A DNA stretch of 63,881 nucleotides, filler included, from Reclinomonas americana ATCC 50394 (GCA_048213135.1; 18 parts of 18 records of this genome joined end to end with filler, not necessarily neighbours in it), one strand, 5' to 3'. Counted from the whole stretch's first letter, positions 11,786 through 60,507 are shown. The notes: a model not told the origin generated them from the sequence alone. Translations and numbers: made by a program.

Positions 11786-14206
11786 ATGGCTGTGTGGGGT
11801 GGTGAGCCGCCTCCTGCGCTCTTTCGCGAGGTGAGTAAGAGTGAGAGTGAGTGAGTGAGTGAGTGAGTGTGTGAGTGAGTGAGTGAGTGAGTGAGTGAGT
11901 GAGTGAGTGAGTGAGTGAGTGTGTGGAGTGAGTGAGTGTGAGAGGGAGTGAGTGAGTGAGTGAGTGAGTGAGTGTGTGAGTGAGTGAGTGAGTGAGTGTG
12001 TGTGTGAGAGAGAGAGAGAAGCGTTTTCGGTGATTATTTCATGCATTTCATCACTTGTCATTCTCATGCTCCTCTCCTTCCCTTTTCCTCCCCTTTTCCT
12101 CGCCTTTTCCTCCGCAGATCCACGTGCACCTGTTCGCCACCGAGAACGATCAGCTCGACATGATGCGCGAGGTGTGTCGCCAGCTGCAAGATCGCGTCTA
12201 CGCCGACAACATTGACTTGGTGGTGGTCACGCACTTGGCCGAGATCCCGCGCCTGCGCGAGCTTCCTCCGCCTGACATGCTGCCGGCGGCACACAACTCG
12301 ATTGTGGTGTTGTGTATGCACTGGAGGTCGCGGAGGCAGGAGGATTTGTTGAGTGAGGAGACGGGGTGGGGGCAGATTGCAAAGTGGGCGGTGTCGGTGT
12401 CGGGTGAGTGGTGATCGGGGAGGGAGGGGATGAGGAGAAGGAGGGAGAAAGAGTCCGTTCTCATGTTGAGGAAGAATGCTTGTGTGTGGCAGAGGAAGTG
12501 GAGAAGAAGAAGAAGAAGAAGAAGAAGAAGAAGAAGAAGAAGAAGANNNNNNNNNNNNNNNNNNNNNNNNNNNNNNNNNNNNNNNNNNNNTTAATTAATT
12601 AANNNNNNNNNNNNNNNNNNNNNNNNNNNNNNNNNNNNNNNNNNNNCAGAGGAAGTGGAGAAGAAGAAGAAGAACAAGAAGAACAACAACAACAACAAGA
12701 AGAAGAAGAAGAAGAAGAAGAAGAAGAAGAAGAAGAAGAAGAAGAAGAAGAAGAAGAAGAGGAGAAGAAGAAAGACAGAGAGTGCGTACATGGTGCATTT
12801 CAGAAGCAGGATGGAGAAGCACTGCGGGACTGAGGAACGATTGCTGCCTGAGCAACGAATGTGACTCCAGTGGAGAAGAATAACGTCCTATATTCTCTTA
12901 GCCTCTTAGCATCGCTTCTCCTGTCTCCCTTCTCCCCCCTTTCTCCCTCCCTCCCCCTCATAACCCCTTTCCCCTCTCCACAGGCGGCCGCGTGGTCTAC
13001 GGCGTCTACGGCGACTCTTTCGCAGTCCCCAGTCGTGGCCAAACCATGTCCACCGCCGTCGCCAACCTCCTCCAGCGCCAGTTTGGCGCCGAGCAGGTGA
13101 ATGGCACGCGCACGCTTGCCATTTCATGGAGACGCGGCGAGGCGCTTTCCGACACCATCATGGATGCGCTCGAGCACTACTTGGTGCACTACCCAGACGA
13201 GGGCGTTCCGTTCTCGCCGGACGTTGTGGCGTTGCACGCGAGACAGCGACTGGCGCTGCGTGGGCCCTTTGACTGTTGAGTCTCACGTACTCTCATTCCT
13301 CCATTCACCCTCTCACTTGGGCATGCTCTCTCGCAGGTGTCGGCGATTGGGACCATGCTCCTGATGACGCTGGTTTGCAACACTCTTGTGCATCTCTCGC
13401 TTCCACATTCACTCATTCGAAGTACTCGCAGCTGTGCCAGAGGCGCCCCTGCCACTCCAGATCGAGGTTTGCCTTCCTCTTTGCCTCCCTTTCCCTCCTC
13501 ATCACCTTCCCTAACTTCACTTGCAGGTCGCTCTGTGCTTCTTCTACGACGCTCGCACCAAGACGAGCACCATTCGCCGCATATCAGCCGACCTGGCGGC
13601 AACTCTGTCGGCGCGCGCTCGTGGCCGCCTGGTGATTCACGCCCAGTTGTACGCGCTGGAGACGGACAATGTGTTGCATGTTTTGCAGCACAATATGCGA
13701 CCCTCAGACGTGGCGGTCATGGTGGTGCAAGGACGACCGTCGTTCCAGTGGTCGCGTGACGATGCAGCCCTGACGCAGGCACATGCGGCACTACGCACGC
13801 GAGGTCTGCCCACTCGCCTCTTTCTTTGGCCCTTCCGTACTGGCTGCGTCTCACACAGTTATTGTGCACAGGTCCGATTGTGTGTTTCGTAGTGCACGAT
13901 CGCAATTCGCGCGGTCTGCGAAGACCAGCAGCCGGGTGCGTGGCACTGGAGACGGCACTGCAGGCCGAACGTGCACTTCCGGGGCGCCAAATCAATGGCG
14001 AGGATGGTTTGCTGGTGGCACTGGATCATGATGTGGAGCCGCTGCATGTGCGCGCCTTTGCGCACGCGATTCAGTGCCAGTTGACGGGCCAGTGGTCCGC
14101 TTTTGACATTTCAGCAGACGAACGCGGTGGTTTAGTGGGAGTTGCAGGCGGTGGCAGCGGCGCTGCCGCAGCAGATGGGGGTGGTGGTGGTTGTGCAATA
14201 TTATGA
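11786..14206 (+). CDS. Hypothetical protein with two apparently duplicated alpha/beta domains and C-terminal CaaX box (CAIL)
   Basis: MAVWGGEPPPALFRE|IHVHLFATEND via intron 11831-12117; further exons about 12984-13274, 13528-13803 and 13872-14206; ends GGGGGCAIL-stop. Confidence 0.6.
11836..12018. repeat. (GAGT)n/(GA)n intronic microsatellite
   Basis: Direct reading. Confidence 0.95.
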
Positions 14207-14229
14207 GCAAGTACATTGCACACCGATCG

Positions 14230-58679: not shown

Positions 58680-59449
58680 NNNNNNNNNNNNNNNNNNNNN
58701 NNNNNNNNNNNNNNNNNNNNNNNTTAATTAATTAANNNNNNNNNNNNNNNNNNNNNNNNNNNNNNNNNNNNNNNNNNNNTTCTTCTTCTTCTTCTTCTTC
58801 TTCTTCTTCTTCTTCTTCTTCTTCTTCTTCTTCTCTCTCTCTCTCTCTTTTGTCGCACTCATTCATTGCCTTTCACGCACCTTGGTCATCGCCTTCTTGG
58901 CATAGGTCGTCGCTTTACCCTCGCGTTTCTTACAGCGCCTGTCTTTCTCTGTTGCCCTCTTTCTTCCTTTCTTCCTCTCTCTCTCTCTCTCTCTCGTATC
59001 GCACATCATGGCCTCTTTCGCTTCTCATAGTCATCGCCTTCAAGGCATAGGTCGTTGCCTTTCTCACAGCTCCCTTACCCGAAGCTTGTTGCTCGTCAGT
59101 TTTTTGATCTTCTTCTTGCACTTCCTTTCTTATTCTCATGTCGCACTCGTTCATGGACTCTCACGCACCTTGGTCATCGTCACTTTTCTCTCCTGCTTAC
59201 CCACCCCGTGCACTTTGCTCGTCGTTTTTTGTCATTCCTCTCTTGCATTCTTTCGTCTCTTCTCTCTTCTCTCTTCTTCTCTCTTCTCTGCCCTCACTTC
59301 TCTCTTCTCTCTTCTTTCCCCTTCTGTCCTTCCCCAGCCTCTTTGTTTGCCAGACTCTCTCCATACTGAATCAGTCCCTCGCCCTTGTCTTGTTGCGCCT
59401 CCCTCTCATTCTCTCACCTATGATCTGATTGTTTCTCTCTTCTGCGCAG

Positions 59450-60507
59450 CATATCCGGTGCTCTCCTCGGTGTTTCTGGCGCTGCTGATGCTGATCGACA
59501 AGATCTGGAGCATTGTGTTTGTGGCGCTCAGCCTGTTGATTTTTGTGTACAAGGGTGAGTGGGTGGAGAGGGGAGAAGAAAATCGCGGGCATTGCATGTC
59601 ACCCGGCTGTTGACTGAAGAGAGAGCGAGAGAGAGACGATAAGGAACAAGTCTTCTTTCTGTAACGCTCAAGCGGCAAAGAGGTGCGTGGTGTGCGCGAG
59701 GGTGAGTGAGCAGAGAGAGCATTGTGTGTACTTTCTCTCCAGTTAGATGAGGCACATCGCTGCGAGGGCGGTGCTCTGCCCTCGGAAGCGAGAATGTCAA
59801 GGCGTTGATCCCCTTCTCTGCTCACACCTCTGCGTCACCGCAGGGCTCGCACTACCGTACCCCACCGGCCCTTACGCCTACGAGATCATCATCTTGATCC
59901 TCTATCTCCCGGTGGCACTCGTGCGACTGTTTCTGGGCGACATGGGCAACAAGCTGACGCGCGCCAAGCACCTGGTGTGGTTCCTCGTGTTGACGGTGCC
60001 GGTGCTGGCTGCCAATGTGTATTACTTGATTCTTCAGATTTATGTGTTGCGTTTGGCAAGGGGGGAGGGGGAGGGGGGAGGGGGGAGAGTTCGCCCGTAC
60101 GTGCGAAGTACGGGTTTCTCCTGTTGTTTCTCTCTGTTTGCAGTGGCATGCATCTCCTGGCGGTCATCATGCTTGCAACTCGCTGTGTTGCTGAAGAATT
60201 TTCTTTGATGTGTCAAGGCGTTCTTGTGTCGACGAGTGCTTTTCTACCTTCTTCCTCTGTCGACAGTTCTTGTGCTGCACTACTCGCTGCATCACTCGTG
60301 AGCGTTTGTGTTGTCATGCTGGTGTCTTTTTGGCGGATTTCCTCCACGACTGGCTTTTTTGTTTGCGCTCCCCACTCAGACTCGCACTCACTCTCCTTCT
60401 GCAGGCTCTCGATTGACGTCGCACTCAACGGCCTCTCTCTAATCATTATCATGCTGGACACGGTGGTCGGGCTGGTCACCGCCATCAACTTCTGTCGATA
60501 TGTCTGA
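59450..60507 (+). CDS. TMEM216: Ciliary transition-zone membrane protein, TMEM216/TMEM80/TMEM17 family, 5' partial
   Basis: VLSS..., IFVYKGLALPYP, VRLFLGDMGN and YYLILQIYVLSIDVALNG align without gaps to remembered TMEM216 motifs; introns 59555-59843 and 60046-60404. Confidence 0.85.

Follow-up and report, generated by a model that had tools for sequence, protein, structure and literature searches.

A window of 63,881 bases from Reclinomonas americana ATCC 50394 (GCA_048213135.1), by which we mean the whole stretch of DNA analysed, was found to contain two kinds of 5′ splice sites. The ordinary donor would be G|GTG(A/C)GT (bar, exon-intron junction) and the second one H|GTTGCGT, with its conserved bases one position further into the intron. 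The observations support the second as a separate donor class, not as the tail of one consensus. By their sequence, its introns are probably major-spliceosome GT-AG introns with a 5′ splice site laid out one base further in, recognized by U1 in a register shifted by one. The window is a chain of 18 contigs (1.0-9.1 kb each, 49-61% G+C); at 1025-1124 and 16 further places, a spacer made of TTAATTAATTAA with 44 N on each side links one contig to the next, and therefore no feature is readable across the joints. The DNA is eukaryotic and rich in introns, and this one 64-kb window, with 63 introns left after filtering, is the whole sample for the results given below.

A reading of the sequence alone (the sequence-only reading) had listed 27 donors as GTTGCG(T) or a variant of it, and all of these motifs were found at their positions, 23/23 on the plus strand and 4/4 on the minus strand. 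Gene models were made with a codon model trained on the window's own sequence. Pass 1, the signal-blind pass, was a dynamic-programming gene finder with only GT, AG, stop codons and codon log-odds as input, whereas signal models were used in pass 2, with a lenient intron penalty, and in pass 3, with the same signal models and a stricter penalty. Introns were retained if they lay on the dominant strand, had a coding score of at least 4 on either side and a length of at most 450; donors with G at +5 were termed class 1 and GTTNHG-type donors class 2. Of the 27 listed sites, 15 were among the donors of the 99 introns predicted in the signal-blind pass. The 60 donors of this pass that remained after the filter included 15 GTTNHGT, with 11 exact GTTGCGT among the 60, and 22 with G at +5; since GTTGCGT makes up 24 of the 8,043 GT sites, 0.18 would be expected among 60 donors. 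These 24 occurrences, on both strands, compare with 8.2 expected from base composition, and 20 of them are modelled donors, namely 19 of those listed previously plus 36069. The remaining four comprise one within the 50133 intron, one exonic (20402, minus strand) and two on an unannotated contig. An unsupervised two-component mixture split the donors into nnGGTGnGT and nnnGTTGCGT. In the stricter pass, the 63 filtered introns were divided into 32 of class 1, 22 of class 2 and 9 others, so that class 2 is estimated at about one third (22/63) of the confidently modelled introns; the earlier claim of a mainstream mode thus held in this sample, whereas the fraction given for it, a fifth, was too low. 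Exact GTTGCGT donors were also far more frequent than expected from independent position frequencies (14 seen versus 0.93 expected, p=4e-13, n=63). As for preservation of the reading frame, 26 of the 27 listed donors start open-frame GT-AG introns, obtained with the signal models or a hand-set acceptor, the exception being 13275. At twelve of these 26 supported sites, the next stop comes before any further in-frame GT with G at +5, and at several an in-frame stop lies 2-25 bases past the donor.

An artefact of the gene models, or a chance enrichment of a GC-rich heptamer, would be conceivable because the ab initio models were trained on the same 64 kb, the donor model of the later passes could reinforce itself, the lenient pass over-predicted (251 introns), and at least two of the "other" donors are wrong (30456; 36316 by eye). 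However, the class had already been found by the first pass, which had no donor model, five sites are set by independent protein evidence, and the statistic for the last exon base covers all 24 heptamers whatever the model. We consequently give this explanation the slightest chance.

Position counts were obtained from 32 class-1 donors and from 29 class-2 donors, the latter including listed sites absent from the filtered set. Class 1 had G at -1 in 27, G at +3 in 25 (A in only 2), A, C and T at +4 in 12, 11 and 8, G at +5 in all 32 and T at +6 in 20; in addition, GTAAGT was depleted in the window (5 versus 21.4 expected). The corresponding counts for class 2 were A 11, T 11, C 6 and G 1 at -1, T 29 at +3, G 24 at +4, C 26 (A 2) at +5, G 29 at +6 and T 27 at +7. 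With G at +5 in 0/29, the conserved G and T of class 2 are therefore located at +6/+7 instead of +5/+6, exactly as had been proposed. The consensus strings GGTGCGT and GTTGCGT are one letter apart, and the cut is one base further upstream in class 2. The last exon base behaved in the same manner, being G in 27/32 class-1 versus 1/29 class-2 donors (Fisher's test, 4e-11); the lone class-2 donor preceded by G, GTTATGT at 54402, is possibly an ordinary site. This bias is independent of the gene models, as only 1 of the 24 GTTGCGT in the window follows a G (20402, minus strand). That heptamer encodes G-L-R in a conserved stretch of a PP-loop (TilS-like) gene, and the PF01171 match extends ten residues past it; judged from this match, it is apparently unspliced and may serve as a natural negative control for the class-2 signal. 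When the exon bases of class 2 were compared with the class-1 exon profile, the log-likelihood was -125 if slid by one and -165 if unslid, and C was found at -2 in 14/29.

Outside the GT, T was required at two positions, +7 and +3. Donors were made of 20/24 GTTGCGT versus 2-3/43 GTTGCG[ACG] (Fisher's test, 2.5e-10), and of 0-1/20 GT[ACG]GCGT versus the same 20/24. These requirements bear on whether U1 might read class 2 with a bulged U, in which case G+1 would pair with C8 and U with A7, one U would bulge, and pairing would resume at GCGU. Such a bulge would suit the resemblance of the motif to GTGCGT plus one T, and +2/+3 bulge registers in human sites are documented in the passages of PMC4856993 on this subject. 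However, C9 would be left for the G at -1, which should then be at least as frequent as in class 1, while 1/29 versus 27/32 was seen and the sole GTTGCGT with G at -1 is the apparently unspliced exonic site. Moreover, any base could bulge, yet GT[ACG]GCGT is hardly used. Because G is nearly missing at -1 and T is needed at +3, we favour the shifted register over the bulge and regard the latter as improbable. Of the "shifted or bulged" recognition suggested by the sequence-only reading, the first part is thus supported and the second is not.

In the rest of the intron the two classes were alike. A branch-like YTVAY was present in the last 60 nucleotides of 19/22 class-2 and 27/32 class-1 introns, at a median of 20 nucleotides from the 3′ end in both, and the branch motif CTCAC/CTGAC (CTSAC), the CAG acceptor, the composition and the length range were common to both. 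U12-type introns are characterized by the donor /RTATCCTT and the branch TCCTTRAC; here, the donors are GTTGCGT and the branch is CTSAC as in other introns, which does not fit that type. The features of U2-type introns, on the other hand, were present, with GT at +1/+2 in 27/27 and AG with the frame kept in 26/27. The classes also differed in phase, class 2 being in phase 0 in 2/22 and class 1 in 16/32, and among donors without G at -1 there were 5 of class 1 and 28 of class 2. Rarity of class 2 in phase 0 would be as expected if class 2 served those exon ends that are barred from G.

We also considered whether the class-2 introns might be copies of one intron, spread by duplication of a repeat gene or as an introner-like element. 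A repetitive malectin/cadherin-like gene contains 10 of the 22, and several of the class-2 introns occupy equivalent module boundaries. By our count, 11/14 introns of this gene (35326-40534, plus strand) are of class 2, far more than in the other genes (Fisher's test, 7e-4). Against common descent, the 22 filtered introns vary from 41 to 359 nucleotides in length, their heads and tails have no likeness beyond +8 by inspection, the class is found on at least seven contigs in unrelated genes (Nudix, phosphodiesterase, SLC35B, TMEM216 and others), and a paralogous position is occupied by class 1 in one repeat and by class 2 in the other. In addition, only the T+7 variant is used, and this exclusive use points to selection on the signal. 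A common origin is accordingly considered very improbable.

Because the frame would be kept in either case, two other placements of the junctions were weighed: a GC donor three bases on (GTT|GCGT...AG), or both ends moved by one base (G|TTGCGT...AGN). Judged from protein and paralogue alignments, five junctions (18398, 28539, 29659, 31110 and 48973) are fixed to the base, and each of them rejects the +3 reading. 1) The 69-base intron at 18398, in a Nudix-family gene, is in frame, and therefore its read-through translation was usable as a homologue query; compared with 17 homologues, the product of |GTTGCGT was gapless from the RK..YP anchor to D.EF, whereas that of GTT|GCGT carried one surplus residue. 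2) At 28539, in the phosphodiesterase catalytic domain, the flanking exon residues aligned to consecutive residues of solved structures (263/264 of 2r8q_A, 251/252 of 5h2q_A and 256/257 of 4i15_A), and the alignment was gapless versus 28/30 homologues and versus the ENA protein P0180 (KPFP|IARQW versus KPFEIAKRW), confirming that this motif pins the junction. 3) The GAF motif VIGVA|EMVNK likewise pins 29659, the alignment being gapless and VAEMVNK identical in P0180 and P0033. 4) At 31110, for which the acceptor at 31043 was chosen by hand from the sequence, VVL[R]RVMQLSRSL was gapless versus VVLRKVMEKSRSL of P0180 and in the 30-homologue alignment. 5) The donors at 48973 and 48585 have the same place and phase in paralogous modules of a repeat gene (contig 47841-54821), where CAWADTTATVCT[F]TGVT matches CAWASSAITQCT[V]TGLT. 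A GC-AG intron would add a residue that breaks the gapless fit at all five, and it would require an invariant exonic GTT. Protein sequence hardly discriminates against moving both ends by one base: over 26 sites this would leave the same messenger RNA at 6, give a synonymous codon at 4 more and create no stop anywhere. Parsimony nevertheless disfavours it, since every site would have to hold a TT...AGN intron, while the GT-AG reading puts CAG exactly at the intron end, like in class 1. The residue at 28539 is Ile under the GT-AG reading, in agreement with P0180 (homologues mostly Ile or Leu), and Val under the shifted one, which is a slight argument against the latter. Overall, misplacement of the junctions appears extremely improbable.

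The phosphodiesterase gene (27292-32592, minus strand) has about 20 exons and encodes about 970 residues with three GAF-like domains. With the class-2 junctions, its model was open over 917 codons to the stop; it did not include one 53-residue exon (about 30246-30398) that was revealed by the homologue alignment. The nearest relative is P0180, which is 44% identical over 976 aligned columns; a Eutreptiella gymnastica transcript ranks next, together with parabasalid proteins, and the best solved structure is the kinetoplastid PDEB1. No homologue was obtained when the search with the phosphodiesterase exon was restricted to longer proteins.

At further sites the evidence was more limited. The SLC35B and TMEM216 junctions named in the sequence-only reading were not pinned by homologues, a profile or structure match being obtained for a single flank of each. 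The donor at 36069 gives a length that, by eye, fits the paralogous module better than that with the signal-blind donor 36099, and the module end at 36426 (...ALEVFYL[N]RQPTNLTF) parallels that at 37872 (...FEIINV[N]LPPKNLQF). The exon downstream of 56308 begins at position 278 of the Pfam UAA profile, and its residue 2 aligns with residue 282 of SLC35B1 in a weak PDB match, but the short SLC35B exons, including those upstream of 56308 and around 55420, had no PDB match. The exon upstream of 60046 matches PF09799 through its last residue; the downstream exon had no match, and none was found in a homologue search with the TMEM216 exon. Pfam matches among the short exons were limited to TMEM216 and the last UAA exons. 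The signal-blind pass merged 50785-51038 into one intron, which spans the mini-exon donor at 50923.

As to mechanism, we infer that the first G of a class-2 intron would replace the last G of the exon. In the shifted register, G+1 would pair with C9 of U1, U+3 with A7, G+6 with C4 and U+7 with A3, G+4 would form a wobble with U1 position 6, and C-2 could pair with G11. U+2 would be kept for catalysis despite its mismatch to C8, and cleavage would stay at the GU, being fixed later by U6, U5 and Prp8 and not by U1. There would thus be two sources of the G for C9, namely the last exon base in class 1 and, for exons with another final base, the first intron base in class 2. A crude nearest-neighbour calculation, for which the 5′ end of standard U1 was taken from PMC4856993, gave duplex energies of -12.2 kcal/mol for cAG|GUGAGUc, -7.8 kcal/mol for cAG|GUGCGUc, -5.8 kcal/mol for cCA|GUUGAGUc in the shifted register and -1.4 kcal/mol for cCA|GUUGCGUc.

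Several points weigh against shifted pairing to U1 as we propose it. By this calculation standard U1 should favour A at +5, but 26/29 class-2 donors have C there and 2/29 have A, and class 1 shows no preference at the corresponding +4 (Fisher's test, 1.5e-5); shifted pairing to standard U1 therefore leaves the strict consensus unexplained. A G·U wobble at -1 would be tolerable in the shifted register, yet the loss of G at -1 exceeds the prediction of the model. The sample is small, and nearly half of the filtered class-2 introns (10/22) lie in one gene (7e-4, as above). All junctions come from ab initio models, plus protein alignment at the five sites. The listed site 13275 failed, and at 31422 (GTTGCGC) a one-residue indel coincides with the junction, in a loop where the model exceeds P0180 in length. 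As for 13275, GTTGAGT (13275..13281) was unused in every pass, and the frame past its nearest acceptor fails to join the next coding exon; according to the models it is probably intronic and not a donor, the enclosing intron starting at 13223 or 13226.

Taken together, it seems that +4 to +7 have a reader besides standard U1, which might be a variant U1, a shifted U6 ACAGAGA pairing or a protein. With shifted U6, G+6 would pair with C42, six rather than five bases from the cut. That a dedicated or variant small nuclear RNA reads class 2, either a second U1 complementary to GUUGCGU (with A for C at position 8, or the full ACGCAAC complement) or a U6 altered in its ACAGAGA region, is unlikely in our estimate though by no means negligible. 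In its favour, the class-2 consensus (G+4 24/29, C+5 26/29, G+6 29/29, T+7 27/29) is stricter than that of class 1 (A12/C11/T8 at +4, T 20/32 at +6), the classes separate cleanly with few intermediates, and C+5 is opposite to what standard U1 predicts. Since C+5 is a poor match to standard U1, the idea gains some weight, speculatively. On the other side, the bases at -1 (A11, T11, C6, G0-1) suit no single pairing partner, both classes are mixed within genes and at paralogous intron positions, and, to our knowledge, the 5′ end of U1 is almost invariant across eukaryotes. A wider form of the idea, in which the major spliceosome would contain two donor-recognition systems, standard U1 for G|GTGNGT and a variant U1 or altered U6 for GUUGCGU, would account for the strict C+5, the obligatory T+3 and T+7 and the exclusion of G at -1; we hold it to be possible but doubtful. 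An Rfam scan of the window for small nuclear RNA genes gave no matches at the gathering score, and at E<=1 only microsatellite-driven microRNA look-alikes and a weak SCARNA2 were obtained.

Modelled class-2 introns of the window, with one class-1 comparator and one exonic heptamer (coordinates in the whole window; signal-blind, pass 1; stricter, pass 3; signal-model, passes 2 and 3)
Feature	Coordinates	Strand	Context and evidence
Class-2 intron GTTGCGT	18398..18466	+	Nudix-family gene; signal-blind pass; homologue alignment
Class-2 intron GTTTCGT	25166..25233	+	Signal-blind and stricter passes; no other in-frame G+5 donor before stop at +40
Class-2 intron GTTGCGT	25402..25474	+	Signal-blind and stricter passes, frame kept
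Class-2 intron GTTGCGT at 28539, 911 nucleotides	27629..28539	-	Phosphodiesterase catalytic domain; homologues and PDB chains
Class-2 intron GTTGCGT	29600..29659	-	Third GAF domain; gapless versus homologues
Class-2 intron GTTGCGT	31044..31110	-	Second GAF domain start; hand-set acceptor 31043
Class-2-like intron GTTGCGC	31356..31422	-	Stricter pass, frame kept; one-residue indel versus P0180
Class-2-like intron GTTGCGC	35886..35961	+	Malectin/cadherin-like gene; signal-blind and stricter passes
Class-2 intron GTTGCGT	36069..36174	+	Missed by the sequence-only reading; signal-model passes
Class-2 intron GTTGCGT	36426..36499	+	Pass 2 only; module end parallels 37872
Class-2 intron GTTCCGT	36794..37051	+	Signal-blind and stricter passes, frame kept
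Class-2 intron GTTGCGT	37257..37347	+	Signal-blind and stricter passes; in-frame stop 7 nucleotides past donor
Class-2 intron GTTTCGT	37872..37972	+	Signal-model passes, frame kept
Class-2 intron GTTGCGT	38258..38326	+	Signal-blind and stricter passes, frame kept
Class-2 intron GTTGCGT	38834..38947	+	Cadherin-like module boundary; signal-blind and stricter passes; stop 23 nucleotides past donor
Class-2 intron GTTGCGT	39419..39501	+	Signal-blind and stricter passes, frame kept
Class-2 intron GTTGCGT	39730..39838	+	Signal-blind and stricter passes, frame kept
Class-2 intron GTTGCGT	40148..40349	+	Signal-blind and stricter passes, frame kept
Class-2 intron GTTGCGT	46802..46879	+	Signal-blind and stricter passes; in-frame stop 25 nucleotides past donor
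Class-2 intron GTTGCGT	48973..49037	+	Repeat module; paralogous position of class-1 intron 48585
Class-2 intron GTTGAGT	50133..50232	+	Signal-blind and stricter passes; in-frame stop 2 nucleotides past donor
Class-2 intron GTTGCGT	50923..51038	+	After 27-nucleotide mini-exon; passes 2 and 3; less certain
Class-2 intron GTTTCGT	53880..53951	+	Signal-model passes, frame kept
Class-2 intron GTTGCGT	54966..55039	+	SLC35B/UAA-type transporter gene; pass 2 only
Class-2 intron GTTGCGT	55420..55478	+	After 13-nucleotide mini-exon; frame kept; rests on mini-exon
Class-2 intron GTTGCGT	56308..56395	+	SLC35B/UAA gene; stricter pass, frame kept
Class-2 intron GTTGCGT	60046..60404	+	TMEM216/Transmemb_17 gene; signal-blind and stricter passes
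Class-1 comparator intron ctg|GTGAGC	48585..48660	+	Paralogous position of 48973
Exonic GTTGCGT preceded by G	20396..20402	-	Negative example; Pfam match reads through

Some donors fell outside both classes or were set aside. The candidate intron starts GTTGTGG (13223) and GTGGCGT (13226), both on the plus strand, are both in frame and neither is class-1-like; the start could represent one more variety of shifted donor, or the model could be in error here. GTTGCGG at 55165 (55165-55171, plus strand) is an odd donor predicted by pass 2 only. A GTCGCGT donor at 30456 was rejected, the real donors being aag|GTGAGC and, after an extra exon, g|GTGTGT. Likewise, GTTCTGT at 36316 was rejected by eye, aaa|GTTTGCGT at 36295 being used instead. 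It was also noticed that the latter (36295-36302, plus strand) has G at +5 and, in addition, GCGT two bases late.

Open frames in the window had Pfam matches to a phosphodiesterase with GAF domains, a Nudix protein, cadherin-like modules and a UAA/SLC35B-type transporter, as well as to RTP1_C1/HEAT, galactosyltransferase, sortilin/BNR and a PP-loop ATPase, and a later Pfam scan added a TMEM216-like Transmemb_17 protein. Scans of metagenomes for relatives with the exon proteins found none, and a GT8-like exon compared with the ESM Atlas yielded no lead as to taxonomy. Dinucleotide microsatellites, (CT)n/(GA)n and (GT)n, are plentiful in introns and at contig ends (33804-33891, 61475-61582 and 23202-23343) and gave rise to sub-threshold Rfam microRNA look-alikes on either strand, which are artefacts. 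Two pairs of identical 18-base contexts (21119/21336 and 21221/21428) lie 207-217 bases apart, which suggests that about 210 bases of non-coding DNA were duplicated in tandem near 21119-21428.

If these results hold, shifted or bulged registers, which have been treated as rare exceptions in human, would serve about one third of the introns here, and a gene finder that relies on one donor matrix would place many of the exon ends of this genome, a large share, wrongly. The organism would then be a natural system for studying 1) how the cleavage site is set when U1 binds off-register, 2) whether the U6 ACAGAGA helix tolerates a shift of +1, and 3) how the coding constraint on the last exon base shapes splice signals. 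Should two readers of the 5′ splice site be present, this would be the first case in which U2-type introns are naturally divided between two such readers across a genome. Among the matches listed in full-text motif searches, no paper on a GTTGCGT donor class appeared, only primers and unrelated RNAs, which does not establish its absence from print.

A shifted register was known before at single human sites; what would be new here is the shifted layout as a sharply defined, routine class. At some human sites, pairing of U1 in a shifted register is established (Roca and Krainer 2009, as cited in the relevant passages of PMC4856993 and PMC11162779), and all non-canonical registers together are put at 1.5% of human 5′ splice sites in the corresponding section of PMC11162779. 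Like those human sites, the class-2 introns are GT-AG, U1 would pair one position downstream with G+1 in the place of the G at -1, and cleavage would be at the GU. They differ in making up 22/63 of the modelled introns, as read from DNA sequence alone, whereas the human sites are rare, and in having a strict GTTGCGT consensus with C instead of A at +5 that is nearly exclusive with G at -1. Bulge (+2/+3) and asymmetric-loop registers are described for human sites as well (Roca et al. 2012; Tan et al. 2016, in the passages of PMC4856993 on these registers). The class-2 donor resembles them in looking like the consensus with one base inserted between +2 and +5; however, bulge registers keep the pair of the G at -1 with C9, whereas here this G is hardly ever seen and only T can serve as the "inserted" base. 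The tandem donor of STAT3 exon 21 is presented, in the part of PMC11162779 concerned with it, as the first evidence of cleavage four, not five, bases upstream of the pair between the 5′ splice site and U6 C42. It is one human exon with experimental support, as given there, whereas class 2 is a whole class of introns for which the evidence is sequence. Both raise the same question, namely whether the G that pairs with U6 C42 may lie other than five bases from the cut. By comparison with that account, in which the shift in STAT3 is one base upstream (G+4), the shift in class 2 would be one base downstream (G+6), as its mirror image.

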